NCBI GenBank assembly: GCA_963708095.1
Contig: OY970182.1
Location: forward strand, 2,355,345-2,419,344
Direction of reading: 5' to 3'
Length of the DNA stretch: 64,000 nucleotides
Source: an uncultured Pseudomonadota bacterium
Lineage (GTDB): Bacteria > Pseudomonadota > Alphaproteobacteria > Acetobacterales > Acetobacteraceae
The notes beneath the pieces are model-generated. The model did not search any database and was not told the DNA's origin. It saw only the letters and a program-made list of their open reading frames with translations. A program made the position numbers and the translations under genes. Below, piece by piece: positions 34,636 to 60,000 of this stretch. The number at the start of each line of letters is the position of its first letter. The first letter of the stretch is position 1.

Positions 34636-35624
34636 AGTCCGTTCCTCAGCACCTCGGCGCCGAGCTGGCGCAGGTCTTCGTTGAAGTCGTTCAGCGCTGG
34701 CACGAGCGTCAGCGCCTCGACACCAGCGGCACGCGCGCGGTCGGCCAGGGTCTCCACCGCACGGTGTCCTGCGGGATCATCGTCCCGCGCGAGGTAGAGC
34801 CGTCGTAATCCGGCGGGCAGTTCGAGCGCGGCGAGGTGGTTGGCCGAGAGCGCGGCCGCCGCCGGCATCGAGGGCATGACCTGCCGAAGCGAGAGGATCG
34901 TTTCCAGCCCTTCTCCTGCGATCAAGACGTCGACCGCGCGGCCGAACCGGACGGCGTTGCCAAGCAGCAGGCCCATGGCGCGGCGGGGCGTCGAGACCGG
35001 TGCTTTGCAGGCGGACCCTGGATCCAGCCAGGTGCGGTGCGCACCGGTCATCGCGCCATCGAGCGCCGTGACCGCCGCGATCAGCGCGGGCCAGGCATCC
35101 CGAGCCCGGTCACGGAGGTCGTCATCGTCGCCGCGATACCAGCAGCGCGGGTGGAAGCGGAGGGTCTCACAGCCCCTCAGATCGTTGATCCCGCGGGCGT
35201 GAAGGTAAGTCTCGGCCAAGGTGCCGGCGAGCGGCTTGGCCATGGCCCAGAGCCTGCGCGCCGCTTCGGGCGAGCCCTGCGGGGCGGGTGGTAGTGGCGC
35301 GGCCGTCGGTTCGGCGCGGGGCAGCGAGAGGAAGCGCCGCGCCTCGTCGGCGACCTCGCGGAACTGCATGAGCCCGCAGCTCTCGCGGATGACGTCGAGC
35401 AGATCGCCGTGCTCGGCCGAGGCGGCATCGGTCCAGCGCCCGGCGGCGCCGGGGCCGGAGTCCGGCCCGCTCAGCCGCACGAACATCGACCGGCCGGGCG
35501 TGTTGCGCACGTCGCCCACCGTCCAGTAGCGGCCCTGGCGTCGTCCCTTGGAGAGGTAATGGCGGCAGACCGCCTCGGCGTCGCGGGCGAGCCGACGCGC
35601 CAGTTCGGAAGCGTCGCGGGGCAT
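34587..35624 (-). CDS. Toprim-domain (primase-like) protein, element copy B
   Basis: The N-terminal 164 codons are identical to copy A. The C-terminus is diverged (AGEGLETILSL...LYLARDDDPAG). Confidence 0.8.
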   Translation of the reverse strand: MPRDASELARRLARDAEAVCRHYLSKGRRQGRYWTVGDVRNTPGRSMFVRLSGPDSGPGAAGRWTDAASAEHGDLLDVIRESCGLMQFREVADEARRFLSLPRAEPTAAPLPPAPQGSPEAARRLWAMAKPLAGTLAETYLHARGINDLRGCETLRFHPRCWYRGDDDDLRDRARDAWPALIAAVTALDGAMTGAHRTWLDPGSACKAPVSTPRRAMGLLLGNAVRFGRAVDVLIAGEGLETILSLRQVMPSMPAAAALSANHLAALELPAGLRRLYLARDDDPAGHRAVETLADRARAAGVEALTLVPALNDFNEDLRQLGAEVLRNGLCVQLAPDERPRVRST

Positions 35625-35738
35625 CACGCGACCCACCCCGATGGGCTGAGGTTATGTTGCGTAGAAGCCGCCGATCGCTCGCAACACCGCCGCCCAGCGC
35701 GGGACCGCAACATAACCAGCCGCGCAACATAATCGGTC
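35133..35738. repeat. Right terminal inverted repeat (606 bp)
   Basis: Mirror image of 30165-30770. Confidence 0.95.
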
Positions 35739-35944: not shown

Positions 35945-38900
35945 TCAGGCCGCGACACGATCGACGACTCGAAGGAGCGGCGATCGCTCGAACAGCGCCG
36001 AGAGGATCGCGGGTCCGCGTTCAGTGACCGGGACGAACAGCCGCAGCCGCCAGGCGATGATCTCGCTCGTGAGCCCCATCGCCTTGAGCTGATCGACGGC
36101 CCCCTCGGTGAAGCCGGCGAGTTCGACGCGGGCGGCACCCATTACCGTCGCGCGGCGGATGGTGAGCCCGCCGGCGAGATGCAGGACGGCGGCATCGGTG
36201 CGTACGGCGGACCACGCTTCGTCCGGCGACAGGGTCGGCGCGTCATCCAGCCCGAGCGCCCGGCAGACCTCGCCCATGGCGGCGGGCGAGATCAGGCGGC
36301 CAATGACCCGCTCACCATCGTCGGTCTGCATGCGATATACGCGCAGCGATTCGTCGGGCAGCCGGTTCCAGATCGGCAGGAGCAGGCCGGTGACGATGTG
36401 GAACGCGCTCTCGGTGAATTCCGGCACCTGGGCCACTTCGGCGGTCCAGGTCGCAGCGAACCTTTCGGCGTCCGCCTCCGTCCAATGGGTGTGATCCAGC
36501 GCGTCGAGGGCGAGCGTCTCGCGGGCCATCGGCCGGACGAGACGCACCCGGCGCTGCACCTCGCCGTCATCGAGGGTCAGGCTCGGCGCCGGCATCTGCA
36601 CCGCGGCACGGCCGGACTGGGCGTTGACCAGCAGCCGCGCTCGCGGGTCCCGCGCCAGGGCAAGCGCGTCGCCGGCGGGAAGCGGCCGGTTGCGGTCCCG
36701 CCGCAGCACCTTGAACAGCCGCGTTTCGGCGCCGCTCGCCGCGTGAGTATGGATGGTGCGCCGCTCGGTGATGCGCAGACTGTCCGCCGTCAGCGTCTCG
36801 ACGCCGACATCGTAGCTGCCGGCGGCGATCGCGTTCTCGATGCGGCTGGTAAGCAGCTCCTCGAACACCGCGAACAGGCCGTTCTGCAGGGCGATCGGCA
36901 GCGCCAGCAGCCGGTTGAGGAAGGTGGTGATCGGCGGCAGGTCCTCGCGTAGCGACCCGTCGCGGTCGGAGAGATCAAGCCCGGTCGTCTCCTCGAAACG
37001 CTGCAACGAGCAGCACTCCACCTTGCCGGCGAAGATCAGGCCGTAGAACTGCCGAAGTGCCGCGCGGGCATAGTGGCTTTCCAGATTGTCGTCGGCCCGG
37101 AACAGGCCTTGACCCCCGGTCTGGCGCTGGCCGCGCGTGATGGCGCCGAGGCTGTCGAGCCGGCGGGCGATGGTGGAGAGGAAACGTTTCTCGCCGCGCA
37201 CGTCGGTCGCCACCGGGCGGAACAGCGGCGGCTGGCGCTGATTGGTGCGGTTCGAGCGACCCAGCCCTTGGATGGCGGTGTCCGCCTTCCAGCCGGGCTC
37301 CAGCAGGTAGTGCACCCGCCGGCGCTGGTTCCGCGCGGCCAGATCGGCGTGATAGCTGCGTCCGGTGCCGCCGGCGTCGGAGAAGACCAGAATGCGCTTC
37401 TCATCGTCCATGAAGGCCTGGGTCTCGGCGAGATTGGCCGAGCCGGGCCTTGTCTCGACGGCGAGCCGCTCGGTGCCATCGGCGGCGACCTTGCGCACCA
37501 CGCGCCGCGACCGCCCGGTGACCTCGGCGACCTGATCGGTGCCGAAGCGCTGCACGATGTGATCCAGTGCGCCCTGCACCGCCGGAAGGGCGGCGAGGTG
37601 TTCCATCATCCGATCGCGCCGCTCCACCGCCTCGCGCGACTGCAACGGCTGGCCGTCGCGGAAAACCGGGCGGGAGAGCAAATTGCCCTCGCTGTCGGTG
37701 AACACCTCGAACAGCTGCGTCGGGAAACCGTGCGCCAGGTAGTCGAGGACGTATTCGCGCGGGGTGATGTCCACCTGCACGTCGCCCCACTCACCGGCGG
37801 GGATGTCGGCCAGCCGCCGGTCCAGCAGTGCTTCGCCGGTGGAGACCAGTTGGACGATGCAGGCGGCGCCTGCGGCGATGTCGCGCTCGATGGCGCCGAT
37901 CAGCGTCGGCACCTTCATCGCGGTGATGAGGTGGTTGAAGAAGCGCTGCTTGTTCGATTCGAACGCCGATCGTGCCGCCGCTTTCGCCTGGCGGTTCAGC
38001 GTGCCGGACGGGCCGGTGACGTTGGCGGCTTCCAGGGCCTCGGTCAGGTTGGCGTGGATCACCTGGAACGCCTCGGCATAGGCATCGTAGATGCGCACCT
38101 GCTCGGGGGTGAGCGCGTGCTCGACGATCTCGACCTCGATTCCCTCGTACGATAGCGACCGCGCGGCGTAGAGACCGAGCGCCTTTAGATCCCGCGCCAG
38201 CACCTCCATCGCGGCGATGCCGCCGGCCTCCATCGCAGCGACGAATTCCTGTCGCGTCGCGAACGGGAAATCCGCCCCGCCCCAGAGGCCCAGCCTTTGC
38301 GCATAGGCGAGGTTCTGCACCGAGGTCGCACCGGTCGCGGAGACATAGAGCACCCGTGCGTCGGGCAGCGCATGTTGCAGGCGCAGCCCGGCGCGGCCCT
38401 GCTGGGACGGCCCGCGCTCGCCGCGTTCGGAGGTGTCGCCGGCGGCGTTGGCCATGGCGTGCGCCTCGTCGAACACGACCACCCCGTCGAAATCCCGTCC
38501 CAGCCAGTCGATGATCTGATCGAGCCGCGACGCCTTGCCCTCCCGTTCCGCGGAGCGCAGCGTGGCGTAGGTGGTGAACAGGATGCCCTGGTCGAGGCGG
38601 ATCCGCGTGCCCTGGCGGAAGCGCGCGAGCGGAGTGATCAGCAGCCGCTCCTGGCCGAGTGCGGACCAGTCGCGCTGGGCGTCCTCGATCAGCTTGTCGG
38701 ACTTCGAGACCCAGAGCGCGCGGCGGCGGCCCTTCAGCCAGTTGTCGAGAATGACGCCGGCAACCTGCCGCCCCTTGCCCGCGCCGGTGCCATCGCCGAG
38801 GAACCAGCCGCGGCGGAAGCGCACCGCGCCCTCGGCGTCGTCGGGGGCGGCGGAGACCTCGTCGTAGGTCGCATCCACCAGCCAGGCGCCGGCGAGATGC

Positions 38901-40318
38901 CCGGCATGGGCTTCGCCTGCGTAGATGACGCTCTCGATCTGCGCATCCGATAGCAGACCGCCCGAGACGATCTCCGACGGTAGATGCGGCCGGTAGCTTG
39001 GGCGCGGCGGCGCTACGGACGCCATGGCCGCGGATTGCACGAGCTTCGTCGGATGCGGCTGCGCGTCCGGGATGGCGATGGTCTGGACGGCATAGCCTTC
39101 GTAGAGCGCATCGCTGATGCGGCCATGTTCGGCCGGCAGTTCCCCCCGGACCTCGTAGGCGAGCGGGAGGCCGGGATCGATCGCCGGTTCCGGGTGACGG
39201 GTCGGGGTGGGATGCAGGCGCGGGACGATCGCGCGTGGGGGCACCGGGCGGGCGGCGGGCGCCGCGACCGCGACTGGGGGCGCTGACAAGGCCGGGCGCG
39301 GCGGCACGAGGCGGGTCACCCACTCCAGCAGCGTCGCCGCGTCGGGGGCGATGCCGGGACATGGGGGGAAGACGGTCGGGTCCTCGGCCGGCACGCGGTC
39401 GATGACGGTCAGTCGCGTCTCGACCGCGGTGCCGTGGCGAGCATAAACGCGGCGGTCGATCCCGGCCGAGAACACCACCCGCCCGCGCGCCTGCAGCCGG
39501 ACGAAATCCTCCCGCCAAGACGGGTTGTCCGGCGCGAGCGAGATGCCGGTGATCGCGACCAAGCGCCCGCCCTCGACCAGCCGCGCCAGCGCCGCGGCGA
39601 CATGGCGGAAGGCCGCGTCTGCCATCCGCCCCTCGAGATGCGCGGCGACCGAGAAAGGCGGGTTCATCAGCACCACCGACGGCGCAATGGCCGGAGCCAG
39701 GTAATCGTGGATCTGCGCCGCGTCGTAACGGCTGACGGCGACGCCTGGGAACAGATTGCCGAGCAGGTCGGCGCGGGTCTCGGCGAGCTCGTTCAGTGCC
39801 AGGACGCCGCCAGCGAGGGCGGCGAAGACGGCGAGCAGCCCGGTGCCAGCGGACGGTTCCAGCACCAGGTCACCCGGCGTGATCGCGGCGGCGACGCTGG
39901 CCGCGAAGCCGAGCGCAATCGGCGTCGAGAACTGCTGGAGTGCCGCACTCTCTTCGGAGCGGCGGGTATGCGTCGGCACCAGCGCGGCCAGCCGGGCCAG
40001 CATGGCGAGCATCCCCGCCGGGCTGCCGGCGCGGGCGCGCATGGCCGGGGCGTGCCGGCGCAGGAACAGAACCTGCGCGGCCTCGCAGGCCTCGTAGGCG
40101 TCCTTCCACACCCAGGCGCCGCCGGTGTCGGATGCGCCGAACGCCGCCTCCATGGCGGCGCGCAGGATGGCGGCATCGAGGGCCTGGCCCCGCTCCAGCG
40201 CGGGCAGCAGCAGCCGGGCGGCGTGCAGGATGGCGGACGCCCGATCGGGCGCAGGGGGCGCGGACGGGGATGCGAGCATGGCCGACCGCTCGGCCAGCGC
40301 GGGGACGATGAGGTTCAT
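35945..40318 (-). CDS. Giant N6-adenine methyltransferase fused to a strawberry-notch/SNF2-like helicase
   Basis: 1457 aa. MTase motifs LEPSAGTGLL and VLMNPPFS. Helicase P-loop GDGTGAGKGRQ and VVFDEAHAM. Confidence 0.9.
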   Translation of the reverse strand: MNLIVPALAERSAMLASPSAPPAPDRASAILHAARLLLPALERGQALDAAILRAAMEAAFGASDTGGAWVWKDAYEACEAAQVLFLRRHAPAMRARAGSPAGMLAMLARLAALVPTHTRRSEESAALQQFSTPIALGFAASVAAAITPGDLVLEPSAGTGLLAVFAALAGGVLALNELAETRADLLGNLFPGVAVSRYDAAQIHDYLAPAIAPSVVLMNPPFSVAAHLEGRMADAAFRHVAAALARLVEGGRLVAITGISLAPDNPSWREDFVRLQARGRVVFSAGIDRRVYARHGTAVETRLTVIDRVPAEDPTVFPPCPGIAPDAATLLEWVTRLVPPRPALSAPPVAVAAPAARPVPPRAIVPRLHPTPTRHPEPAIDPGLPLAYEVRGELPAEHGRISDALYEGYAVQTIAIPDAQPHPTKLVQSAAMASVAPPRPSYRPHLPSEIVSGGLLSDAQIESVIYAGEAHAGHLAGAWLVDATYDEVSAAPDDAEGAVRFRRGWFLGDGTGAGKGRQVAGVILDNWLKGRRRALWVSKSDKLIEDAQRDWSALGQERLLITPLARFRQGTRIRLDQGILFTTYATLRSAEREGKASRLDQIIDWLGRDFDGVVVFDEAHAMANAAGDTSERGERGPSQQGRAGLRLQHALPDARVLYVSATGATSVQNLAYAQRLGLWGGADFPFATRQEFVAAMEAGGIAAMEVLARDLKALGLYAARSLSYEGIEVEIVEHALTPEQVRIYDAYAEAFQVIHANLTEALEAANVTGPSGTLNRQAKAAARSAFESNKQRFFNHLITAMKVPTLIGAIERDIAAGAACIVQLVSTGEALLDRRLADIPAGEWGDVQVDITPREYVLDYLAHGFPTQLFEVFTDSEGNLLSRPVFRDGQPLQSREAVERRDRMMEHLAALPAVQGALDHIVQRFGTDQVAEVTGRSRRVVRKVAADGTERLAVETRPGSANLAETQAFMDDEKRILVFSDAGGTGRSYHADLAARNQRRRVHYLLEPGWKADTAIQGLGRSNRTNQRQPPLFRPVATDVRGEKRFLSTIARRLDSLGAITRGQRQTGGQGLFRADDNLESHYARAALRQFYGLIFAGKVECCSLQRFEETTGLDLSDRDGSLREDLPPITTFLNRLLALPIALQNGLFAVFEELLTSRIENAIAAGSYDVGVETLTADSLRITERRTIHTHAASGAETRLFKVLRRDRNRPLPAGDALALARDPRARLLVNAQSGRAAVQMPAPSLTLDDGEVQRRVRLVRPMARETLALDALDHTHWTEADAERFAATWTAEVAQVPEFTESAFHIVTGLLLPIWNRLPDESLRVYRMQTDDGERVIGRLISPAAMGEVCRALGLDDAPTLSPDEAWSAVRTDAAVLHLAGGLTIRRATVMGAARVELAGFTEGAVDQLKAMGLTSEIIAWRLRLFVPVTERGPAILSALFERSPLLRVVDRVAA

Positions 40319-40660
40319 GGTGGGATTCCGGAGAGTGGGGTTCCGAGGCCGGCGGGCGCTCTCTCGACCCCACCTGGCTCACCCCGTCCCGGCCATCCTC
40401 TCGCTTTTGCCCCTCACCACGGTGTCATCGATGGTCGGCGCCGCCGGCAGCGGCACCCAAGGCCGCCGGAATCGGCGTGGGCATCCTCACGTTGTCCCGA
40501 CGCGGGTTAATGGCGCAGTTTGAACGTCCGCTATGAGGAGGAGTTGCCATTCGACCAACCGCGATGCGACGGGTCAATTGCGCCCGGAGCGGACCTTGGC
40601 CAGCCTCCAGGGTCCGGACAGGCATTCCTCTGTCGAGGCAAGCCAAGGTCCACATCCTCC

Positions 40661-41572
40661 TCACGCCATCGGCGTGACGCTCTTAATGAGTTCATCAGCC
40701 AACCTCCTGACCTCCGTCCGTCGAGCTTCGACTTCACCGCGGTTGTCGAGAACCAGTTGAATCCTCTTAGGCGCGAGTTGCTCGGGATCGAGATCCAGGT
40801 TCAGCTGGCTTTCCAGATAGTATGAGGAACACACAGAAGTTGTGACTTCGAGCGCCCCGTGGCGCATTCCATGATCCCGCTCGACGGCGACGCGCATGGC
40901 CGGCGACAACCGGGGATTTGCAACGAGCCGCATCTTTAGGGGCTCCTTCCATTCTAGGTCCCATTTGCTGCGCGCGACGGTTGGTCCCATCTCTCCGAAC
41001 TGGCTCAGCCGGCCAATGACAAAGTCGCGAAAGCCCTGACTGCGGAAACAGAAGGCGCGGATGTGCCAGCGCTGGCCGTCGAAGCCGAGTGCATGCGGCG
41101 CAATGGTCCGAACCGACGCCTCGTCGCTGGAGAACGACAGATAGCGCACTTTGATTTGAAGCTGCTCCCGGATGCACTGGATCAAACGGCGAAGGACTTC
41201 CGGATCGTAGTGGCGCCTGATCCTCGGAGCGCCGGCAAAGTCCGGCGGCCGCCCGATCCAGGAGTCCCCGGGGCCAAGGCCGCCCGTGCTGATCGACCTG
41301 AGCTGGGCGAGGTAGCCGTCGGCCGAGGGCGTGATCAGCTTCGGCTGAAACTCAGGACCGGCCACGTAGGTCTTCGCGGTCTTGTCGTAGGCCAAGTTGC
41401 CGGGAGCCAGATGGTCATAGCGCGCTAGGTCTTGGGACGCTTGCGGCACGCTGATGCCGAAGAATTCCACCAAGTCCGACCGGTTGATGCGCCCCTCCCA
41501 GTAGAGCCTCAGCTCGATGAAGGTCAGCCTGCGTTCGATGTTCCAGCGCAGACGTGCTCGCCCCTCTTCCAT
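40661..41572 (-). CDS. wHTH-WYL domain transcriptional regulator (CapW/BrxR-like)
   Basis: Start at MEEGRARLRW (GGAGG 6 nt upstream). wHTH LVEFFGISVPQASQDLARY. WYL core IAPHALGFDGQRWHIRAFCFRSQGFRDFVIGRL. Confidence 0.85.
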   Translation of the reverse strand: MEEGRARLRWNIERRLTFIELRLYWEGRINRSDLVEFFGISVPQASQDLARYDHLAPGNLAYDKTAKTYVAGPEFQPKLITPSADGYLAQLRSISTGGLGPGDSWIGRPPDFAGAPRIRRHYDPEVLRRLIQCIREQLQIKVRYLSFSSDEASVRTIAPHALGFDGQRWHIRAFCFRSQGFRDFVIGRLSQFGEMGPTVARSKWDLEWKEPLKMRLVANPRLSPAMRVAVERDHGMRHGALEVTTSVCSSYYLESQLNLDLDPEQLAPKRIQLVLDNRGEVEARRTEVRRLADELIKSVTPMA

Positions 41573-41605
41573 GAACCCTCCACCGATTCCGGTCCGCATA
41601 GTCTC

Positions 41606-41636
41606 TTGACCCGTCTCGAAAAACAACCCATATAGT
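41606..41636 (+). promoter_or_regulatory. Candidate sigma70-type promoter of the Ubl operon in the divergent intergenic region
   Basis: TTGACC (41606-41611) and TATAGT (41631-41636) are 19 nt apart. CATATA at 41629 gives 17-nt spacing. The region is AT-rich. Confidence 0.4.
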
Positions 41637-41683
41637 TTTTTTCCCCATCCTGGGGGCGGGTGGTGGCTGCAGAGGACACGAGG

Positions 41684-42103
41684 ATGATGGGCGCCGAACG
41701 CGATGACGATGAATTGGAGCGCGAGGAGGATTGCCTCTTGAAGGAGGACCAGGAGCGCCTGGCGCGCGACGTGGAGCGCCTGAAGGAAGGCGAAGCGCGG
41801 ATCGAAGAGGACCGGAAGGATATCGAGCGCGATGAGGCCCGCCGCGAGCGGCGGCTCCGGATCGAACTGCTGGTCATCGTCAGCGGCGACGAGGTGAAGA
41901 TCAAGGCGAAGCCCGACGAGTTCCTGTCCAAGGTTGCTGAGCAAGCGCTGGAGAAGAGCGAACATACCGGTCGGCCCCTGTCGGATTGGGTGATGCGCAA
42001 CGAAGCCGGCGACGTGCTCGACGTGAGCCGGACGGTGGAGTCCTACGGGCTGAAGGACGGCGACATCCTCTCGCTGACCCTCGAAGCCGGGGTCGCTGGG
42101 TGA
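41684..42103 (+). CDS. Ubiquitin-like (beta-grasp) protein with a hypercharged N-terminal extension and C-terminal Gly
   Basis: 139 aa from the ATG (GAGGA upstream; the track start GTG 41660 is possible). The C-terminal ~80 aa LRIELLVIVSGDEVKIKAKPDEF...SYGLKDGDILSLTLEAGVAG-stop is beta-grasp-like. First gene of the E2/JAB/E1 operon. Confidence 0.75.
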   Translation: MMGAERDDDELEREEDCLLKEDQERLARDVERLKEGEARIEEDRKDIERDEARRERRLRIELLVIVSGDEVKIKAKPDEFLSKVAEQALEKSEHTGRPLSDWVMRNEAGDVLDVSRTVESYGLKDGDILSLTLEAGVAG

Positions 42104-42645
42104 ACGAACAAGTCGTCGATCCGGCGGTTTCCCGGGCCAAGTTCGAACGTGAGCTCCACGCCTTCCAACAGCTAAAGGCCATGCATCGGCGACGCGGCTG
42201 GTGGGTCAGGTCGGCGGAGTTCCCCGTCGTCGAAGTGGCGTTCTTGACGCCAGCTTGCCGCCCCGCTGCGATCGCAGCCTGCGTCAGGATCGACTTCACC
42301 AATTATGACCTATGGCCGCCATCAGTGGTGTTCGTTGACCCGTTTTCCGGGGCCGCCCTGACCATCGACCAGATCACTACCCCATTCGCCCGGATGACGC
42401 CGAGTGGCCCGCAGCGCCTAGTGCAAGGCCATCCGGGTCAGCCGGCGTTTCTGTGCTTGCCGGGCGTGCGGGAGTACCACAACCATCCCGGTCACAGCGG
42501 GGACGATTGGCTTCTGCACCGCGGCGCCGGCGAAGGCGGTCTTCAGTTTCTGGTCGACAAGATCTCCACCTACGGATCGGAAAGCGTGACCACTTGGGGA
42601 GTGCAGATGCAGGTGATCCTTCAGCAGCAACAACTCCCCGCATGA
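42100..42645 (+). CDS. Prokaryotic E2-like (UBC-fold) conjugating enzyme
   Basis: GTG start in a GTGA overlap with the Ubl stop. Candidate catalytic Cys in QPAFLCLPGVREYHNHPGH. Confidence 0.75.
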   Translation: MNEQVVDPAVSRAKFERELHAFQQLKAMHRRRGWWVRSAEFPVVEVAFLTPACRPAAIAACVRIDFTNYDLWPPSVVFVDPFSGAALTIDQITTPFARMTPSGPQRLVQGHPGQPAFLCLPGVREYHNHPGHSGDDWLLHRGAGEGGLQFLVDKISTYGSESVTTWGVQMQVILQQQQLPA

Positions 42646-43157
42646 TGGTCAGTCTCACGACCGTGGAGCGGGTCCTCGTCCCGCGCAAAATCGCGGACGA
42701 TACGCAAGCCCATCTGCGCAACGTCGGCCGAAATGGCCTAGAGGGGATGGCACTTTGGGCCGGAGAGCTCGACGGAGCCGACTTCCTCGTTCGCGCCGCC
42801 GTGATCCCCCAGCAGCAGGGCCACCGCACCGAACATGGCATAGCCGTTTCCGTCCCCGGCTTCGAATTGCATCGGATCAACATGTGGCTGCACCGTAACC
42901 GGCTGCGACTCATCGCCCAGATACACAGCCATCCGACCGAGGCCTATCACAGCGACACAGATGACCGGTACGCTATCGTTACGGCGCTCGGCTCTTTGTC
43001 GCTGGTCGTGCCCGATTTCGCCGTGCGGCCGTTCGCCTTGAACGACTGCGCTGGCTACCGCCTGTCCACGCCGCCCTGGTGGCGGCTTTCCAGTAGGCCT
43101 CAATGGCGCGCCTTGCCGTTTGAGGAATTGACCCGAACCATTCAAGTCATGTCCTGA
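42642..43157 (+). CDS. JAB/MPN (JAMM) metallopeptidase
   Basis: ATGA overlap with the E2 stop. JAMM motif IHSHPTEAYHSDTD and upstream Glu in GLEGMALWAG. Confidence 0.9.
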   Translation: MMVSLTTVERVLVPRKIADDTQAHLRNVGRNGLEGMALWAGELDGADFLVRAAVIPQQQGHRTEHGIAVSVPGFELHRINMWLHRNRLRLIAQIHSHPTEAYHSDTDDRYAIVTALGSLSLVVPDFAVRPFALNDCAGYRLSTPPWWRLSSRPQWRALPFEELTRTIQVMS

Positions 43158-43160
43158 CCC

Positions 43161-44777
43161 ATGGCCGCCGCCAACTTCTTTGATCGAGCGCTGATGAGCG
43201 CTGCACAGGCGCTGCAAGGCGCCGATCCCGCCCAGGTTCAAGCCGAGCTTGACGGCCACGTGGTCGAACTGGCCTGGGATCGGCGCGCCGCTCAAACCGT
43301 GGAAGGTCAGGCGGCGCTCGACCTCGGCGTTCGTCTGTTGGCGCGCCTTTATCCGGTTTTGCGCCTGTCGCCATTGGACGCGGCGGCGGCCGGTCGCCGC
43401 GCCGGCTTAGAAGCGCTCGCCCTATCCATCAATCCCGCGATTGAGCTGAGTAGCGCCGCCGAGAGTACCGTCCGTTTGGTCTTCGGCGACACTGCTGTCG
43501 CCGCCGGCCCGGTGACGATCTACGCTGGCTCCAACGGCTGGCTGGCCAAGGCTTCGACGCGCCGGCCCCAGGGTATCGGATCCACGCTCTTACCGTTCGG
43601 CGCCGGCGGCGCAGCCTGCCTCGGCGCGGCGAACGTCTTTCGGGCAATCTTCGCGAACCGACTGCCGTCTGCGGCCCTAGACGAGAAGGCCGCGCTGTCG
43701 ATGCTGGACTTCAGCACTGGCCGCCAGGCGACCCAAGGGCCGACGATGCTCGATGTCGATCTGGGGCTGACGCCATTGGTCGGCGTGGGTGCAATTGGCA
43801 ACGGCGTTATCTGGGCGCTGGCTAGAGCGCCGGGGCTGAAGGGCGTCTTGCATCTGATCGACCATGAGCAAGTCGAACTTTCGAACCTTCAGCGCTACGC
43901 CTTGGCGACGCAGACCGACGTTGGCCGGGTGAAAGTCGAAATCGCTCGAGATGCGCTTGTCTCCAACTCCTCCTCTCTCACGCCCATGCCGTTCACGGCG
44001 CGCTGGGATGAGTATCAGGCGGGGCGCGGCCACGCGGTTCTGAAACGCGTCCTCGTCGCGCTGGATACGGCACGGGATCGGATCGCCGTTCAGGCCGCGT
44101 TACCCGGGCGCGCGTTGAATGCCTGGACGCAGGTTGGCGACCTGGGGATTTCGAGGCACGATTTTCTTGGCGAGGAGGCCTGCCTAGCCTGCCTGTATCT
44201 GCCGAAGGGCGCGGCGCCTCATGAAGACGAATTAATCGCCCAGGCGCTGGGACTTTCAACGGAAAGACCAGTGCTGCTCGATCTGCGCAACCGTCTGATC
44301 GGCAACGAGCCCGTGGGCGAGGCCTTCGTCCGCGAGACCGCAGCGCGAGTGGGCGCGCCTGCTGATACGCTATTAGGATTTGCTAACGATACGTTACGGC
44401 AGTTCTACGTCAAGGCGGTTTGTGGTGGGCTACTCCTGAAGCCAAATAGCGGCCGGCCGCCGCTCGAAGCGCCGCTTGCCTTTCAATCGGCGATGGCGGG
44501 GATCATGTTGGCCGCCGAAACCGTCGCTGATGCGGGCAGCCTAAGGGCAACACCTTCCGTTACAAAAACCATCCTGGACATAACCCGCCCGTTGGCGTCA
44601 CACCTCAACGTCCGAGTGCTCAAGTCCGCGCCGTCAGCCGGGCCTCGGTGCATCTGCCAGGATCAGGACTTCGTGACGGTCTATCGCCAAAAGCACGGCA
44701 TGCCTGAACCCGAGCCAGCCGTGGACTCCAGTCGCCATCACGCACCCAAATGCGGGCCTAGCGAACTTCCGCTATGA
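43161..44777 (+). CDS. E1-like (ThiF/UBA-family) activating enzyme
   Basis: 538 aa with GVGAIGNGVIWAL and DHEQVELSNLQRY (adenylation domain). There is an extra N-terminal ~200-aa domain and a Cys pair in EEACLACLY. Confidence 0.85.
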   Translation: MAAANFFDRALMSAAQALQGADPAQVQAELDGHVVELAWDRRAAQTVEGQAALDLGVRLLARLYPVLRLSPLDAAAAGRRAGLEALALSINPAIELSSAAESTVRLVFGDTAVAAGPVTIYAGSNGWLAKASTRRPQGIGSTLLPFGAGGAACLGAANVFRAIFANRLPSAALDEKAALSMLDFSTGRQATQGPTMLDVDLGLTPLVGVGAIGNGVIWALARAPGLKGVLHLIDHEQVELSNLQRYALATQTDVGRVKVEIARDALVSNSSSLTPMPFTARWDEYQAGRGHAVLKRVLVALDTARDRIAVQAALPGRALNAWTQVGDLGISRHDFLGEEACLACLYLPKGAAPHEDELIAQALGLSTERPVLLDLRNRLIGNEPVGEAFVRETAARVGAPADTLLGFANDTLRQFYVKAVCGGLLLKPNSGRPPLEAPLAFQSAMAGIMLAAETVADAGSLRATPSVTKTILDITRPLASHLNVRVLKSAPSAGPRCICQDQDFVTVYRQKHGMPEPEPAVDSSRHHAPKCGPSELPL

Positions 44778-45077
44778 GCCAACTTCGGCCACTGCCGACC
44801 GGGCGGTCGATAGGCAGCTATGGGTGCGAATCTGCCGTTGGAAGATTTTCGGGCGGACTTCCGCTTACCTCCCATCCCCGCCGATCGGCATCGTGCAGGT
44901 GATCGGCCGCTTCGGATCAGCATGAGCCGGTCTTGGCCGGTCCGTCTGATGATGCCTATGCGGCGGAAGGCGCACCCCAACTCGAATACGATCCGACCGG
45001 GTCCCAATTCGCCCGTATCTTCGTTGGCCGGCTAATGTCCGCTCTGCCACCCGGCCGATCGCCTCGGAAACCTGCCA

Positions 45078-45731
45078 ATGCAGTTGAACGCCGATCTCCC
45101 CCATCCCGCCGCGGTCGATAGCGCGGCGCTCGCCTGGGGTGCCTCGCCCATGACGGGGGTGGAGCGGCGGATGCTCGAGCGCGACGGCGACGAAGTTGCC
45201 CGCGCCGCCTCGCTCGTGCGCTACGCGCCCGGCTCCGCCTTCTCCGCCCACACCCACGGCGCCGGCGAGGAGTTCCTGGTGCTGGCGGGCGTGTTCTCCG
45301 ACGAGACCGGGGATTTCCCGGCCGGCTTCTACGTCCGCAACCCGCCCGGCTCGCGGCACATGCCCGCCAGTGCACGGGGCGCGGTGATCCTGGTCAAGCT
45401 CCGCCAGATGCCGCCCGAGGAGACCGAGGCGGTGCGGCTCGACACGCGCGATCCCGCGCTCTGGCGCGACCTCGGGCAGGGCCGGCGTGAGGCTGTGCTG
45501 TTCCAGGCGCCGTGGGAGCGGGTGGTGATGTTGCGGCTTGCGCCCGACCATGCCGGCGCCGCCGAGACCTGGCCGCGCGGCGTCGAACTCTTCGTGGTCG
45601 AGGGCGATGTCGTGATCGACAGCACGACCCATCGCGCCGGCGCGTGGCTCCGCCGGCCGCCCGGCAGCCGCCTGACGCTGGCAAGCCAGGGCGGGGCGCT
45701 GCTCTACCGCAAGACCGGCCATCTCGGCTGA
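45078..45731 (+). CDS. ChrR-like cupin domain protein
   Basis: WGASPMTGVERRMLERDGDEVARAASLVRYAPGSAFSAHTHGAGEEFLVLAGVFSDE...YVRNPPGSRH. Confidence 0.7.
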   Translation: MQLNADLPHPAAVDSAALAWGASPMTGVERRMLERDGDEVARAASLVRYAPGSAFSAHTHGAGEEFLVLAGVFSDETGDFPAGFYVRNPPGSRHMPASARGAVILVKLRQMPPEETEAVRLDTRDPALWRDLGQGRREAVLFQAPWERVVMLRLAPDHAGAAETWPRGVELFVVEGDVVIDSTTHRAGAWLRRPPGSRLTLASQGGALLYRKTGHLG

Positions 45732-45737
45732 CGCAGG

Positions 45738-46792
45738 GTGCCGGACCTGATCGTCATCGGCGCCGGCCTTTCCGGCTTGGCGCTGGCGCGGGCGGCGACC
45801 GGGCGCGGCGCCGAGGTGGTGGTGCTGGAAGCCCGCGCGCGCATCGGCGGCCGGGTGCTGAGCCATCGCACCGCGGCCGGCGCCTACGACCTCGGCCCTG
45901 CCTGGGTCTGGCCCGCCATGCAGCCGCGCATCGCCCGGGCCGTGCGGGCGGCGGGGCTGGCGCTCACCGAGCAGGCGGAGGCGGGCGGCTTCGTCTTTCA
46001 GGACCAGACGGGGCGCATACAGCGCCTGCCGCATGGGTTCGCGCAGGAGCCGCCGAGCATGCGCATCACGGGCGGCATCGCGGCGCTGGTGGAAGCTGTC
46101 GCCGCCGGCCTCGCCCCGGGGTGGTCCGGCTGGAACACGCGGTCCGGCGCATCGCGCTGACCGGAAGCGGCGTTGCCGTCACCGCCGAAAGCTCCTCCGG
46201 CCCCGTGATGCTGTATGCCGCGCGCGCCGCGCTCGCCCTGCCGCCGCGCCTGATCGCTGGGATCGAGATCCTGCCCGACCTGCCACCGTCCGTGCAGGCG
46301 GCGCTTGCTGCTGTGCCGGGCTGGATGGCGGGCCAGGCCAAGGTGCTGGCGCTCTACAACCGGCCGTTCTGGCGCGAGGCGGGCCTGTCGGGCAGCGCAT
46401 TCAGCCAGGCGGGACCGCTCGGGGAACTCCACGATGCGAGCCTCGCCGGCGCCGCCGAGGCTGCGTTGTTCGGCTTCTTCTCCTGGCCACCCGCCCTGCG
46501 CGCGGGGCGACGCACGGCCTTGCCGGAGCTGGTCGCCCGCCAACTCGGCATGCTGTTCGGCGCCGAGACCGCTCGGCCGCGCGAGGTGATCATCCAGGAC
46601 TGGGCAACCGAACCCTTCACCGCGACCGAAGCCGACCACGCCAACGGCAACGTGCATCCGGACTATCGCCCGATCGCCCTGCCGGCGCCGTGGGGCGAAC
46701 GGATTACCCTCGCCGGCGCCGAAATGGCCCCCGAATTCGGTGGCTATCTGGAGGGCGCGCTCGCCGCGGCCGAGGCCGCCACTATCGCGTGA
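45738..46792 (+). pseudogene. FAD-dependent amine oxidase with an apparent frameshift
   Basis: The GTG start gives DLIVIGAGLSGLALA (FAD GxGxxG). The frame ends at 46160, while the rest of the protein (VVRLEHAVRRIAL...YLEGALAAAEAA) continues in another frame from about 46117. The switch lies in CCCCGGGG (46114-46121). Confidence 0.65.
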
Positions 46793-46864
46793 TGTGCCGT
46801 CGGCCTCGAAGTCGGGGCAGGTGCTCACTGCGAACGGATCGACGTCACGGTGGATCGGCTGGGC

Positions 46865-47023
46865 GCGGCCCATCCATGGCTCGGGGCGGATGCGGCGTGC
46901 CCAGTCGGCGAAGCTCGGGATGAAGCCGAGATCCTCGCGGACATGCTGCTCGCCGATCAACCGCACCGGCAAAACGCACCCGGTCGAGATGGTGATGGTC
47001 GGCCCGAAGAATTGCTCCGCCAT
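46865..47023 (-). pseudogene. C-terminal fragment of a small DUF6915-like gene, split by a mobile element
   Basis: (M)AEQFFGPTITISTGCVLPVRLIGEQHVREDLGFIPSFADWARRIRPEPWMGR. There is no in-frame stop until 45998, so the 3' end is undefined. Confidence 0.6.
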
Positions 47024-47098
47024 TATATGGACAGACTCTGCCAGAGAGCGCTTTCGGCGTAGGCTCGACGACGAGTACGACTGGGCTGGAGGTCTGCC

Positions 47099-48241
47099 AT
47101 GTCGAACAATTCTATGAGCATTGATGCGCCTGCATTGGGTGGGTTCGACCCGGCTGCATCGCAGTTTTCTGTGTATCTCGATGCGTCGGGATGTTCGCCC
47201 AACACCGCGCGCGCATATGCTCAAGATCTTTCGCATCTTCGATCCTTTCTGGTTGAACAAGGTTTGGAATGGCCGAGCCTCACGCCCGCGCTTGCGGTCG
47301 ATCTGCTGCTTCACCTTCGGAGCAAGCGGAGCCATCGTCGCGGTGCTGCCCAGTATCCCTCGCTCGCGACAGTCAACGGCGAGCGGGGCGCACGTCTCAG
47401 CACCGCGACGATCAACCGGGTGTTGGCCGCCGTGTCATCATTCTACGAGTGGGGCAGGATCACCGAGCGGTTCGATGGCCCTAACCCGATCACCCGTGTT
47501 CACGATCGCGCCGCCGCTCGGGTCTCGGAACGTCATCGGCCGTTCCTGACCGGCGTTGTGCCACCGCGCCAGATACGCAGCCCGGTGCGGCTACGGCAGG
47601 TACATCGCGTGCCCCGCCCGATGTCGAATGAGGACATCGACGCGCTGATCGCGCAGCTCCGCTGCCGTCGCGATCTGGCGATAATTCGCCTGATGCTCGA
47701 CGGTGGTCTTCGTCCCGGCGAAGTGCTTGGCCTTCATCTGATCGATCTCGCCTACGGCAGACGGCGGGTGATGATCAGGGTCCGCTTCGATCATCCGCGC
47801 GGCGTGCGCAGCAAATCTAGAACCGAGCGCGTAGTCGATCTCCACGAGGCGGCGACACTGGAAGCTGTAAGCGCCTATGTGATGCGCGAGCGGCCGCAGG
47901 ATACCGATACTCCGCACCTCTTCCTCGTTGGCGGACGCGGCCCGCGCCGGCATGAGGCATTGTCCTATTCCGCGTTGGTCAGGCTGTTCGCGCGGGCCTG
48001 CACCCGCGCTGGCATTCGGACGCCGTGGATTACACCACACGCGCTGCGCCACACCCATGCGACCCGCATGTGGGAGGGCGGCATGCGCGAGCTGACGCTC
48101 CAGCGACGGCTTGGCCACGCCTCGCCCGAAGCGACCCGCGTCTACACACGCGTTTCGGACCCGATCGTCGTCGCTGAGTATCGACGCGCTCTCGGCCTCG
48201 GCGACGCGCCTGCAACCGAGCCGGGGACCACAGCGTCGTGA
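47099..48241 (+). CDS. Tyrosine recombinase (smaller subunit)
   Basis: 380 aa. HALRHTHATRMWEGGMRELTLQRRLGHASPEATRVYTR. Confidence 0.9.
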   Translation: MSNNSMSIDAPALGGFDPAASQFSVYLDASGCSPNTARAYAQDLSHLRSFLVEQGLEWPSLTPALAVDLLLHLRSKRSHRRGAAQYPSLATVNGERGARLSTATINRVLAAVSSFYEWGRITERFDGPNPITRVHDRAAARVSERHRPFLTGVVPPRQIRSPVRLRQVHRVPRPMSNEDIDALIAQLRCRRDLAIIRLMLDGGLRPGEVLGLHLIDLAYGRRRVMIRVRFDHPRGVRSKSRTERVVDLHEAATLEAVSAYVMRERPQDTDTPHLFLVGGRGPRRHEALSYSALVRLFARACTRAGIRTPWITPHALRHTHATRMWEGGMRELTLQRRLGHASPEATRVYTRVSDPIVVAEYRRALGLGDAPATEPGTTAS

Positions 48242-50283
48242 GAGCGGGCCCGGTCTCGGCCGCCGCAATGCAGGCGCGCGCAGTCGAGGAGCCGCGGAAC
48301 AATCGGAGCCGTCACTGCTCGGCGGACGAGTATGACGCGTTTCTCGCCGGTTGCGAGGTCGCCAAGCACTTCGTCCAGCAGCGCCGCAGTCATCGCAAGC
48401 TCTTCGTGCAAGCCTGGCCTGATCTCGAAGAGTGGCTTCACGCACCACTTGCCGATCGCATTGGCCGAATGGACGGGCAGACACGACGCACGCTCACCAA
48501 CCGGCCATCCTATTACGCGCGCGCCTATCTCTATTATCTGGCGCTCAACGGTCATCTGCGTCTCGACTATCCGTGGCTGCTCGCGATTGGCGACCTGTGT
48601 GTCCATGATGTCGCCTATCATATGCGCCTTGATCTGGGGGCGGATACGCTCGCGACCGAGGCCGCCGCGCTCGGCCTTCGCTGCGAGAACGCGAAGCTTG
48701 CGATGCGTTGGACGCTGGGCCGCATCGCCGTTCACGGCGGTCCACAATCGATCGACAGGCTCAATGACAACGACATCGACCAGATGCTCGTCGCGGTTCG
48801 CGAGTTCAGCAAGCGGCCAGATCTTGCCGCTTACTGGACGTCGGCCGAGCGTTATTGGCAGGTTTCCAAGAGCTGGATCACGAAGATCGGCCAGCTCAGG
48901 CTCGTGCTCTATCATCGCGGCCAGGTTCAGGAGGTACCGCGTAAGATAATGCCGTCGGCTGACCTGTGTGCGGGGCAACCGGCGATGGGCGTGCTGGTCG
49001 ATGCGTGGCTTGAACGTCGTGCGCCTGCCTTGCGACCAGCGACCACATATCATTATGCGCTGACGGCACGCCGGTTTCTCGGGCATCTCGCCGAGTCCCA
49101 TCCGCAGGTCCAGACCTTCGCCGACGTAAAGCACGATCACATTGTCAGCTGGATGGATGCGATGGCGACCGAGCTGTCGCCGACGACGGGACGGCCGCTC
49201 ACCGCACGGTCGCAGCGTGAGCGCGTCATTCGTCTGGCGCAGTTTTTCAAGGATGCTGAGGATTGGGCATGGCACAACGTGCCGAGATGGCCGCTGATCG
49301 CCAAGCGCGATCTACCGCGCGTCCCAGACCGCATACCACGTTACATTCCTCGTGCTGACCTCGAACGACTGATGGATGCTGTCAGGGCGCTGCCCGACCC
49401 GTTTCAGCGGGCTGCGATGATCGTCGCACGCTGGTCGGGCGCGCGGCGCAGCGAGGTGCGGCGTCTTACGACCGACTGCCTCAACAACTATTCCGATGGC
49501 ACGGCCCGACTGCGCATCCCGGTCGGCAAGACCGCACGCGAACGTATGATCCCACTCCATGACGAAGCGGCCGACGCTCTGCGCGCGGTGCTGGCAATCC
49601 GCGCGGAGGTCGCCGACCGGCGCTTGCCCGACGAGCGAACCGGCGATCTGGTCCGGTTCGTGTTCGTCTGGCGAGGCAAGCTTATGAGCGATCGGCATCT
49701 GTTCGGAACGCCGCTTAGGCGCGCATGCGAAGCAGCGAGTCTTGTCGACGCTGTCGGCAAACCGACGATCACCATGCATCGCTTTCGCCATACGCTCGGC
49801 ACCGAACTTGCCGAGCGCGGCGCGAAGCTGCACACGATCATGAGCATCCTCGGCCATGAGAGTCCACAGATGACGATGGTCTATGCGCGGATAAGCGATG
49901 CCGAGGTATTGCGCGACTATCGCTCGGTGCTCGAACCAGGCGCCGTGATCGCGGGTGCGGGAGCCGAGGCGATCCGCGCCGGCGCCCTCTGCGACAGTGC
50001 GATCGATTGGTTGCGCACCAACTTCCTGAAGACCGAGCTCGAGCTGGGGCATTGCCTGCGGCTGCCCTCGGAAGGGCCGTGCGAATGTGATCTCTATCTG
50101 AGTTGCTCGCGGTTCGTGACGACGCCAACTTATGCTCCGAGGCTGCGAGAGCGCCACCGGCTCGAACTGTCTCTTGCAGACGATGCCCGCGAGCGGTCCT
50201 GGCCGCGGGAGGTCGAGCGGCACTGCTCGGTCGCCCGCCGTATCGAGCAGTTGCTCACAGATCTTGGACAAGGAGTAGATTGA
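48238..50283 (+). CDS. Tyrosine recombinase (large subunit)
   Basis: 681 aa. GTG start in a GTGA overlap with the upstream stop. HRFRHTLGTELAERGAKLHTIMSILGHESPQMTMVYAR. Confidence 0.9.
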   Translation: MRAGPVSAAAMQARAVEEPRNNRSRHCSADEYDAFLAGCEVAKHFVQQRRSHRKLFVQAWPDLEEWLHAPLADRIGRMDGQTRRTLTNRPSYYARAYLYYLALNGHLRLDYPWLLAIGDLCVHDVAYHMRLDLGADTLATEAAALGLRCENAKLAMRWTLGRIAVHGGPQSIDRLNDNDIDQMLVAVREFSKRPDLAAYWTSAERYWQVSKSWITKIGQLRLVLYHRGQVQEVPRKIMPSADLCAGQPAMGVLVDAWLERRAPALRPATTYHYALTARRFLGHLAESHPQVQTFADVKHDHIVSWMDAMATELSPTTGRPLTARSQRERVIRLAQFFKDAEDWAWHNVPRWPLIAKRDLPRVPDRIPRYIPRADLERLMDAVRALPDPFQRAAMIVARWSGARRSEVRRLTTDCLNNYSDGTARLRIPVGKTARERMIPLHDEAADALRAVLAIRAEVADRRLPDERTGDLVRFVFVWRGKLMSDRHLFGTPLRRACEAASLVDAVGKPTITMHRFRHTLGTELAERGAKLHTIMSILGHESPQMTMVYARISDAEVLRDYRSVLEPGAVIAGAGAEAIRAGALCDSAIDWLRTNFLKTELELGHCLRLPSEGPCECDLYLSCSRFVTTPTYAPRLRERHRLELSLADDARERSWPREVERHCSVARRIEQLLTDLGQGVD

Positions 50284-50464
50284 GATGGCGACAGCGCGTG
50301 TGGCCCGGTGCTCGCCCCGGTGGGTCCACAGGCACCTCCCCGCCGCCCGCTCCGCTTGCGCGCTGATACGCGCTACGCGGACGGCGGGGCCCCTCCTATG
50401 GACTACCGGGACGACCACCTCCGTCAGTGCCAAGATCAGACCGCGCTTGCATGTCCACATAACC

Positions 50465-50625
50465 GCCATGAAGATACCTTCCGCATGATGCCGGAGTGCA
50501 CGATGTCGAAAATCCGAGGTCAACATCTTCGACTCGTCGAACCAGGCGTGGAGCGGCAGGTAATCATCCGCAGTTCCGCCCCAAAGGCGCGCCGAGGACA
50601 GGGCGTGATGATATGGATGTGCCAT
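50465..50625 (-). pseudogene. N-terminal fragment of the DUF6915-like gene
   Basis: MAHPYHHALSSARLWGGTADDYLPLHAWFDESKMLTSDFRHRALRHHAEGIFMA, then element sequence. Confidence 0.65.
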
Positions 50626-50636
50626 CGTCGCCTCCA

Positions 50637-51101
50637 TCAGAATTCGTGTTCGGAGTAGGAGGTCGTCATCACGCGCTCGTTGTATTCCAAACGGATGGTG
50701 CGCTCGCCGACGTCGAAGGTGAATTCGCCATAGGCGCCGTCTTCGTTCTCCCAGCCGTCATGCGCCTCTTCGAGGAAGTCGTAGGCCAGCTTCTCGATGG
50801 CGTCGCGCGCCGACATGGTCTCGGTCTGCACGCCACTTCCGTCCCAGAGCGGGGTGCGGATCTCGATGGTGCCGTCGGGCAATGCGGCGGCGGTTTCGTC
50901 TGGGTTCGTCGCGTCGATGCTCTCGATCTGTCCGGAATCACCGGCGCCGTCGAAGTGAACGGTGATATGCTGGATGCCAGCCGCCTGAAGCACTGCGAAT
51001 AGCGCGGCCTTGTTGAGCGGTGTCACCTCGCGGGCCAGATGGGCGCGCAGCCGGGCCTGGGCCTCGTACGGCGCGAAGGCATCGTTCGGGTTGTCGATCA
51101 T
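50637..51101 (-). CDS. Conserved ICE-associated protein (DUF6878-like)
   Basis: MIDNPNDAFAPYEAQARLRAHL...VHFDGAGDSGQIESI...GWENEDGAYGEFTFDV. Confidence 0.55.
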   Translation of the reverse strand: MIDNPNDAFAPYEAQARLRAHLAREVTPLNKAALFAVLQAAGIQHITVHFDGAGDSGQIESIDATNPDETAAALPDGTIEIRTPLWDGSGVQTETMSARDAIEKLAYDFLEEAHDGWENEDGAYGEFTFDVGERTIRLEYNERVMTTSYSEHEF

Positions 51102-51129
51102 GGGGGTGTTCCTCCGGGGTTCGAGAAAG

Positions 51130-56205: not shown

Positions 56206-56282
56206 TACATCACGCTATCATGAAGAGGCATCACTCTCTAGTGGGACGCGAGGTCGGTGGGCGCGGCGAGAGGAGCTTGCGC

Positions 56283-59988: not shown

Positions 59989-60000
59989 CGCCTGGTTCCG

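Follow-up and report, generated by a model that had tools for sequence, protein, structure and literature searches.

A predicted Type II BilABCD ubiquitin-like conjugation operon with a divergent CapW-family repressor in the cargo region of an alphaproteobacterial conjugative element

Results

The subject of this work is a block of five genes (positions 40661-44777) in a 64,000-nucleotide stretch of DNA, hereafter the window, from an uncultured bacterium of the Acetobacteraceae (assembly GCA_963708095.1, contig OY970182.1). Four of the genes lie on the plus strand in the order expected of an operon for the conjugation of a ubiquitin-like protein (Ubl), namely bilA, for the Ubl itself (41684..42103, 139 aa; Pfam DUF2604, 9.7e-27), bilB, for an E2 of the CEHH type (42100..42645, 181 aa; Metal_CEHH, Y4jH-like, 3.1e-45), bilC, for a JAB/JAMM peptidase of the deubiquitinase (DUB) type (42642..43157, 171 aa; Prok-JAB, 8.6e-6), and bilD, for an E1 (43161..44777, 538 aa; Prok-E2_C, 6.5e-37, and ThiF, 1.7e-13). 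The fifth, a capW-like repressor gene, is on the minus strand (40661..41572) and encodes 303 aa with winged helix-turn-helix (wHTH), WYL and WCX domains; the 111 bp between it and bilA (41573..41683) form the divergent promoter/operator region.

An earlier note on this DNA had described four co-directional, translationally coupled open reading frames (ORFs), an arrangement that can be read directly in the sequence: the bilA stop and the GTG start of bilB share GTGA at 42100-42103, bilB and bilC share ATGA at 42642-42645, and the bilC-bilD junction (43155-43163) reads TGAcccATG, leaving a gap of 3 nt. All five ORFs are intact, public gene callers return identical products of 139, 181, 171, 538 and 303 aa, and profile or PDB-sequence matches were obtained for 5/5 proteins, so that the gene calls exceed chance. 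The block was also said to be poorer in G+C than its neighbours, and so it is (63.3% for the module, against 71.1% for the adjoining strawberry-notch gene and 67.4% for the window); G+C at third codon positions (GC3) is 72-84% in the cassette genes.

The families found, taken in the order Ubl-E2-DUB-E1, are DUF2604, Metal_CEHH, Prok-JAB, and Prok-E2_C with ThiF, and all four operon proteins match the same set of PDB entries (8TYX, 8TYY, 8TYZ and 8TZ0) in a PDB sequence search. These entries belong to the Type II BilABCD system of Ensifer aridi TW10, for which both structures and a biochemical reconstitution are available (Chambers et al., bioRxiv 10.1101/2023.09.26.559546). The same work gives the gene order as Ubl-CEHH/E2-DUB-E1, identifies the 'CEHH' protein as a diverged E2 and the Pfam domain 'Prok-E2_C' as being in fact the inactive adenylation domain of a eukaryote-like E1, catalogues 162 CEHH operons, chiefly in Rhizobiaceae, and in 2023 gave the '6C' operon its present name, Type II Bil. 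What was first proposed for this locus, a Bil-like operon for Ubl conjugation with the plan Ubl-E2-JAB-E1, is borne out by the family and PDB matches, with significant profile matches for each of the four ORFs. The families then named fared unevenly: Prok-JAB and ThiF were matched, Multiubiquitin (PF14452) and Prok-E2_B (PF14461) were not, their actual counterparts being DUF2604, Metal_CEHH and Prok-E2_C, and the E1 combines Prok-E2_C with ThiF rather than being ThiF alone.

Aligned to the E. aridi proteins, those of the window keep all the published catalytic and zinc residues of Type II Bil. BilB matches the E. aridi E2 (BilB, 8tyz_C) at 1e-40, and its residues 117-132, FLCLPGVREYHNHPGH, contain the CEHH motif, with C119, E125, H127 and H132 falling on E. 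aridi C138/E144/H146/H151; the residues equivalent to E125 and H127 lack conservation in Type I (bioRxiv 10.1101/2023.09.26.559546). C119, singled out beforehand as a candidate, is by this alignment with C138 the predicted catalytic cysteine of the E2. The JAMM motif previously noticed in the third ORF is likewise real: BilC matches the E. aridi DUB (BilC, 8tyx_B) at 1.6e-43, its residues 95-107 read HSHPTEAYHSDTD, and the active-site residues E34, H95, H97, S104 and D107 are present (E...HxH...S..D). BilD matches the E. aridi E1 (BilD, 8tyz_A) at 9.4e-130 across residues 1-519 and is composed of an inactive adenylation domain (IAD; Pfam 'Prok-E2_C', residues 38-165), an active adenylation domain (AAD) and a CYS insertion. 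The adenylation signature recognised from the start, GVGAIGNG, stands at 208-215 and is followed by NLQRY at 242-246. The key residues of BilD are R9, G208-G215, R245, D302, the catalytic C421 and the zinc ligands C341/C344/C497/C499, among which R9, R245, C341/C344, C421 and C497/C499 are the counterparts of E. aridi R9, R246, C340/C343, C417 and C491/C493. With the exception of R9, which is kept in the window and E. aridi BilD, all of them are invariant in 8 homologues.

Relatives of the operon were collected with BilD as the seed, yielding 3 genomic loci from a single-protein scan of a genome collection and 80 metagenomic loci from an alignment-based scan, about 51 of the two sets together having usable upstream sequence; individual loci are referred to below by numbers preceded by L. 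Many of the BilA proteins in these loci terminate exactly at glycine. So does that of the window (...EAGVAG-stop), where the free C-terminal glycine already remarked upon is Gly139, the last residue. The protein matches Methylobacterium BilA (8u38, 8.8e-14) and E. aridi BilA (8tyz_B, 6.6e-13, with ...AGVAG aligned) in the PDB, and its residues 57-139 make up one beta-grasp ending at Gly139. The N-terminal part is of another nature, for residues 1-58 are 67% charged and residues 3-56 are modelled by AlphaFold2, run on the single sequence, as one long helix (predicted local distance difference test, pLDDT, 84-98), i.e. a tail of the coiled-coil (CC) type. Similar charged helical tails occur in L029, L031, L036, L039 and L070, and the BilA tails of the nearest relatives are either N/G-rich and of low complexity (L001, 4587-4949, and L011) or almost lacking (L007, L009 and L014). 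The tail is the sole part of the cassette without homology between loci; in the window it is not alignable with other CC-type tails, and no DNA or protein homology was found over 41660-41860.

Two observations on BilA in other loci may be added. In L029, L031, L036 and L039 a His/Asp-rich linker (HDHDHDH...), suggestive of metal binding and absent from the BilA of the window, separates the charged helix from the beta-grasp. In the metagenomic Type II Bil loci L057 and L061 the BilA and BilB frames are fused in one ORF as a Ubl-E2 fusion; fused E2 domains are mentioned in PMC11601603.

The divergent gene had been taken to encode a wHTH-WYL regulator, and its product, with wHTH-WYL-WCX architecture, is on sequence grounds a repressor of the CapW/BrxR family. 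Near-full-length PDB matches were obtained to CapW of Rhizobium leguminosarum (Rl; 9C5G, 7.9e-58), CapW of Stenotrophomonas maltophilia (Sm; 7TB6, 5.6e-57) and BrxR (7T8K, 3.2e-39), the Pfam match is WYL at 2e-12, and the precomputed domains are WHD_BrxR, WYL and BrxR_CTD. Mapped against PMC9122588 and PMC11662680, its residues R31, S41, Q44 and S46 correspond to the DNA-contact residues R32, S42, Q45 and S47 of Sm CapW, and S146, R168, R172 and R188 to S144, R164, R168 and R184 of the pocket for single-stranded DNA (ssDNA) in Rl CapW, the pocket motif being RWHIR (168-172) in place of RWHVR. A GGAGG lies 4 nt upstream of the capW ATG at 41572. CapW is known to repress from an imperfect palindrome of 19-24 bp overlapping the -10 element (PMC9122588), from which ssDNA releases it (PMC11662680), and regulators of this type are known to gate CBASS, BREX and Bub operons.

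The 111-bp gap does hold the TTGACC (41606-41611) and TATAGT (41631-41636) reported earlier, with a spacer of 19 nt, and it is due to this spacer that a generic promoter scan, which allows 16-18 nt, missed the bil promoter. The same block can be written as CTTGAC (41605-41610) and, 17 nt further, CCATAT, which overlaps TATAGT (41628-41636), and in this form (CTTGAC, 17 nt, CCATAT/TATAGT) it aligns without gaps in 6/6 loci where capW and bil genes are paired (see below); as evidence for a promoter, this conservation is stronger than a match to the consensus, as judged from the aligned sequences. AGAGGA at 41671-41676 is the ribosome-binding site of bilA. A palindrome search returned a 23-bp imperfect palindrome, AAAACAAC-N7-GTTTTTTT, at 41620-41642, which straddles the -10 and is the predicted candidate operator of CapW. 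At or just after the -10 (41628-41650 of the window and the aligned positions) a dyad, ATAG-N3-CTAT, is kept in five other loci (L001, L007, L009, L011 and L014): it carries a symmetric double change in L011 (AAAG-TTT-CTTT) and a flipped centre in L014 (ATAG-AAA-CTAT), and occurs twice in L007. A generic repeat search of the intergenic region with seed 6 returned nothing, and a palindrome search designed for the purpose gave no long dyad common to all six loci. A hairpin in the 5' untranslated region, formed by GC-rich dyads downstream of the -10, was considered and rejected, its folding energies being no better than those of shuffled sequences (z -1.1 to +1.0). A generic terminator scan gave no terminator after bilD.

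The pairing of capW and bil genes recurs elsewhere. WYL homologues at 53-75% identity each divergently adjoin a Type II Bil operon in an Allosphingosinicella metagenome-assembled genome (L001), in L007/L016, where the pair lies beside AbiE, in Rubellimicrobium roseum (L009), beside RepC and DUF736, in a Parablastomonas chromosome (L011), beside an SMC-like ATPase, resolvases and RHS, and in L014, beside a relaxase, MobC, ArdC, DUF736 and ParB; Zeta toxin is also found among the neighbours of the cassette elsewhere. The nearest relatives of this CapW outside Bil loci, at 51-54% identity and thus little more distant, adjoin Type II CBASS operons. DNA homology between the window and the other capW-bil loci runs from inside capW through the promoter to inside bilD, the BilA tail excepted, and the six capW-linked loci fall together in a single clade when 78 BilD sequences are arranged in a neighbour-joining tree. 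L065, in which a WYL protein 31% identical (2580-3488) is encoded upstream of a Type II Bil operon, falls outside this clade, suggesting that a WYL regulator was recruited independently on a second occasion.

A WYL neighbour is a minority arrangement, seen at 3 of the ~51 Type II Bil loci (~6%). A Peptidase_M78 (CapP-like) neighbour with HTH partners occurs at 7 of the ~51, in agreement with the 15% of Type II Bil operons given for CapH/CapP in the main text of bioRxiv 10.1101/2023.09.26.559546. That main text, supplementary tables aside, makes no mention of WYL proteins with Type II Bil; passages in PMC11601596 and PMC11601603 mention WYL regulators for the related Bub operons. Near-identical copies of the cassette (99.4-99.7%) are found in three independent read-set assemblies of Logan (L004, L005 and L006). 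The contigs of all three break at window position 40359, just outside the strawberry-notch gene, suggesting that in those samples the backbone past this point varies or is repeated. No relative of Type II Bil was found on viral contigs.

As to the surroundings, Pfam scans mark the window as a conjugative element of the Trb type, with TrbI, TrbG, TrbF, TrbL, TrbE, TrbB, TraG and a relaxase, and with backbone genes for SLT, DUF2840, DUF736, a SLOG protein, Toprim, strawberry notch, DUF6878, a ParB-like protein and ArdC. The cargo insertion (40319..50636) comprises capW-bilABCD, a ChrR-cupin gene, a split amine-oxidase gene and two tyrosine-recombinase genes, and is flanked by the strawberry-notch gene (35945-40318) on the left and by the DUF6878/ParB-like genes (50637-53291) on the right, both on the minus strand. 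ParB and strawberry notch are immediate neighbours in a related plasmid, CP122394, from which it follows that the 40.3-50.6 kb segment is inserted cargo; the earlier description of an island of lower G+C within the backbone of an integrative and conjugative element (ICE), next to anti-restriction genes (here ArdC), is supported by this comparison and by the Pfam scans. No flanking repeats bounding either the cassette or the 10-kb insert were found, and no tRNA gene is present in the window, so that the integration site of the ICE is not visible. In PLSDB, Type II Bil occurs on 12 plasmids, 9/12 of them conjugative, including pNGR234a.

Other features of the element were noted in passing. The two tyrosine-recombinase genes (47099-50283), whose products have 380 aa and 681 aa and whose stop and start overlap, stand at the right-hand end of the insert and may have mobilised it. 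Between them and the cassette, 45078-46792 holds a ChrR-type cupin gene and, after it, a gene for a flavin amine oxidase, apparently split by a frameshift, its N-terminal part at 45738-46160 and its C-terminal part running on in the frame of ORF 45512-46792; this stretch, at 74% G+C, is unlike the Bil cassette. To the left of the cargo, a 606-nt inverted repeat, 100% complementary, occupies 30165-30770 and 35133-35738. It corresponds to the 5' portions of a pair of Toprim/DUF7146 genes (30267-31322, plus strand; 34587-35636, minus strand) and brackets a 4.4-kb segment with tyrosine-recombinase genes at 31348-32361 and 33283-34635 and probably one more in between; at 29292-29771 there is a third, truncated Toprim copy. 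The segment looks like either an insertion of the recombinase-trio type with target duplication or an invertible segment. Right of ArdC, at 55012-60399, a DUF3644 gene in a patch of low G+C (57-61%), a gene for a RecD2-like helicase (57763-59988) and a fragment with a SRAP domain (60001-60399) may be further cargo.

Discussion

Taken together, the locus most probably (at roughly 85%, as judged from sequence comparison) represents an intact Type II BilABCD Ubl-conjugation system with a divergent CapW-family repressor, borne as cargo by an ICE. It is also very probable that the five genes capW-bilABCD travel jointly as a cassette, which here sits in the cargo region of a Trb-type ICE of a high-GC alphaproteobacterium. 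Their presence at this locus is a further example of a characterised system, not a new kind of system.

The closest known relative is the Type II BilABCD system of E. aridi, with which the window shares the four proteins and their order, the Pfam families, a Ubl with a single beta-grasp, an E2 of the CEHH type, and an E1 with IAD, AAD and CYS domains in which catalytic and zinc residues can be aligned. The two differ in that the BilA of the window has a charged helical tail of 56 residues and terminates at Gly, whereas E. aridi BilA has one extra Ala, in the length of BilB (181 aa vs 204 aa, with a shorter variable loop in the window), and in the attachment of a CapW-type regulator to the window locus. 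The tail itself has a counterpart in the CC-Ubl1 class, i.e. a coiled coil followed by one beta-grasp, which accounts for 5/134 Type II Bil Ubls, N/G-rich tails being also reported (Gong et al., PMC11601603); among two CC-Ubl1 proteins tested there was one dimer and one monomer (PMC11601603). BilA of the window fits this class, with its coiled-coil tail and single beta-grasp, albeit with a tail that cannot be aligned and no His/Asp-rich linker. Similarly, the regulator resembles CapW and BrxR (7TB6, 9C5G, 7T8K) in its three-domain architecture, the DNA-contact residues of the wHTH, the RWH(V/I)R pocket, its divergent position beside a presumed target operon, and a candidate palindrome over the -10; it differs from them in that it presumably controls Type II Bil, not CBASS or BREX. 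Hence the three features of the locus once listed as unusual, i.e. a single beta-grasp behind a charged extension, a WYL switch and a location on an ICE, each have precedent, in the CC-Ubl1 class, in the CapW-type switches of CBASS, BREX and Bub, and in Type II Bil on conjugative plasmids of rhizobia, respectively.

More distant systems share part of this design. Type I BilABCD (Collimonas sp. OK412) has the same gene order and chemistry, and its outcome is that the Ubl becomes attached to the phage's central tail fibre (Hör et al., bioRxiv 10.1101/2023.09.04.556158), yet its Ubl has two beta-grasps, its E2 is of the Prok-E2_B type, and its E1 differs in the N-terminal part and in sequence group. 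Type II CBASS with Cap2/Cap3 and CapW likewise has a CapW repressor in control of E1/E2 and JAB enzymes, but there the CD-NTase is the conjugated moiety, the E1 is fused to the E2 and a Ubl gene is lacking. Finally, the Bub (DUF6527/'6E') operons are bacterial E1/E2/Ubl/peptidase operons, many with CapW/BrxR or CapH/CapP (PMC11601596, PMC11601603), that make use of oxyester (serine) intermediates and a DUF6527 protein, in contrast to the window, which has catalytic cysteines and no DUF6527 gene.

Several points weigh against the assignment to Type II Bil with a CapW switch, or against the role attributed to it. Both the Bil assignment and the roles of the proteins are known here from sequence alone. 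The PADLOC Bil models, taken without regard to the type of their members, matched BilB (1.3e-3), BilC (9.6e-13) and BilD (1.9e-15) weakly and BilA not at all, so that automated defence finders may miss the locus. In the single-sequence AlphaFold2 model of BilA the elements of the beta-grasp come in the right order at low confidence; the fold assignment is founded on sequence homology. The palindrome at 41620-41642 lies in an A/T-rich stretch and could be due to chance, and the dyad kept next to the -10 in the other loci is degenerate in the window (ATAG-TTT-TTTT). As regards function, phage defence has been demonstrated, in the text available of bioRxiv 10.1101/2023.09.04.556158, for a Type I Bil system, and the corresponding text on Type II (bioRxiv 10.1101/2023.09.26.559546) describes non-specific conjugation in Escherichia coli; the phage-defence role, the target and the trigger of the present locus are thus what I infer by analogy.

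By that analogy, the system would work as follows. A CapW dimer would sit on the imperfect palindrome overlapping the bil -10 and keep the operon off, as expected from work on CapW/BrxR. Single-stranded DNA arising from DNA damage or phage replication would then bind in the WYL pocket, spread the wHTH domains and free the promoter, a step demonstrated for E. coli and R. leguminosarum CapW and to which the conserved S146, RWHIR and R188 point here. BilD would adenylate Gly139 of BilA and take it over as a thioester on C421, and BilA would then pass to C119 of BilB and on to lysines through isopeptide bonds; the E. aridi proteins do perform E1- and E2-dependent isopeptide conjugation of the Ubl (bioRxiv 10.1101/2023.09.26.559546), and the proteins of the window, with similarities of 1e-40 to 1e-130 and the catalytic residues kept, would be expected to do likewise. 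Since BilA terminates at Gly, no trimming is needed, and BilC would probably serve only in the removal of conjugates. More speculatively, the charged N-terminal helix of BilA may dimerise, whereby tagged targets would be cross-linked or obstructed. The target would probably be a phage structural protein and the outcome a defence at the population level, as suggested by Type I and by the defence-island and mobile context.

The alternative that survives best, though unlikely, is that the cassette serves mainly in conflicts between mobile elements, or in the establishment of the ICE, rather than against phages. Transfer brings ssDNA, which is known to release CapW (PMC11662680), into a recipient initially free of repressor, and a burst of Bil proteins might ensue on entry, and the proteins tagged might belong to the recipient, to rival plasmids or ICEs, or to the element itself. 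The setting is in keeping with this idea: the cassette lies between the ParB-like/DUF6878 and strawberry-notch genes and close to ArdC, 2/5 of the other capW-bil loci (L014 and L009) adjoin conjugation or plasmid genes, and the share of conjugative plasmids among those with Type II Bil in PLSDB is 9/12. Anti-phage cargo is however common on mobile elements, and location alone has no discriminating power; besides, members of the same clade are found in chromosomal contexts resembling defence islands (AbiE, SMC-like ATPase, RHS), and a link between Bil and conjugation is without experimental precedent for any Bil system. A stronger form of the idea, somewhat less likely again, would have the cassette be a device coupled to transfer, in which conjugative ssDNA and the absence of repressor set off a burst of Ubl, and BilA, by means of its coiled-coil tail, cross-links or obstructs proteins of the recipient or of rival elements, thereby aiding the establishment of the ICE or excluding competitors.

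That the cassette might instead be a decaying, non-functional passenger is improbable. It does lie in a rearranged cargo region, beside the frameshifted amine-oxidase gene and recombinase genes, and the degenerate dyad next to its -10 could be read as a sign of decay, but the five ORFs are intact and translationally coupled, all catalytic residues are kept, copies nearly identical to it recur in several samples, and the GC3 values fit coding sequence.

Still less credible is a sulfur-carrier or cofactor pathway of the ThiS/MoaD-ThiF/MoeB type (cf. the CysO-Mec+ and siderophore systems), in which the beta-grasp protein would be thiocarboxylated and remain unconjugated. BilD has matches to ThiF/MoeB proteins (Pfam ThiF, 1.7e-13; PDB MoeB, 8.3e-7; NCBIfam MoeB, 3.2e-10), and some sulfur carriers are accompanied by JAB peptidases. 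The best NCBIfam MoeB/ThiF score is nevertheless 39.7 bits against a curated cut-off of 266 (NCBIfam has no dedicated models for the proteins), an E2 with a catalytic cysteine is present, BilD has the two-domain IAD/AAD plan with a CYS insertion, homologues at 1e-40 to 1e-130 make isopeptide conjugates, and no sulfurtransferase or biosynthetic genes are adjacent. Least tenable of all is a Type I Bil operon (Multiubiquitin, Prok-E2_B, Prok-JAB, ThiF), which has in its favour the shared Ubl-E2-DUB-E1 order and the weak PADLOC matches, and which is refuted by the Pfam families (Multiubiquitin and Prok-E2_B unmatched at E <= 0.1, with DUF2604, Metal_CEHH and Prok-E2_C instead) and by best PDB matches to Type II proteins, BilA having moreover one beta-grasp, not two, and BilB having E125 and H127, the CEHH residues reported as unconserved in Type I.

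Conclusions

To sum up, the locus adds one intact and well-delimited member to a family that is relevant to the origin of ubiquitination and for which crystal structures, biochemical work and a list of >130 operons exist. Its sole modest novelty is the capW-linked sub-clade of Type II Bil, a monophyletic sub-group co-inherited with an ssDNA-sensing repressor of the CapW type, which offers a handle on what induces Type II Bil. The hypervariable tail of the Ubl, be it a charged helix, N/G-rich or absent, points to a fast-evolving effector end, and the ICE-borne copy provides a place to examine whether Bil induction is linked to conjugation. None of these points alters the known working of the Type II Bil system.

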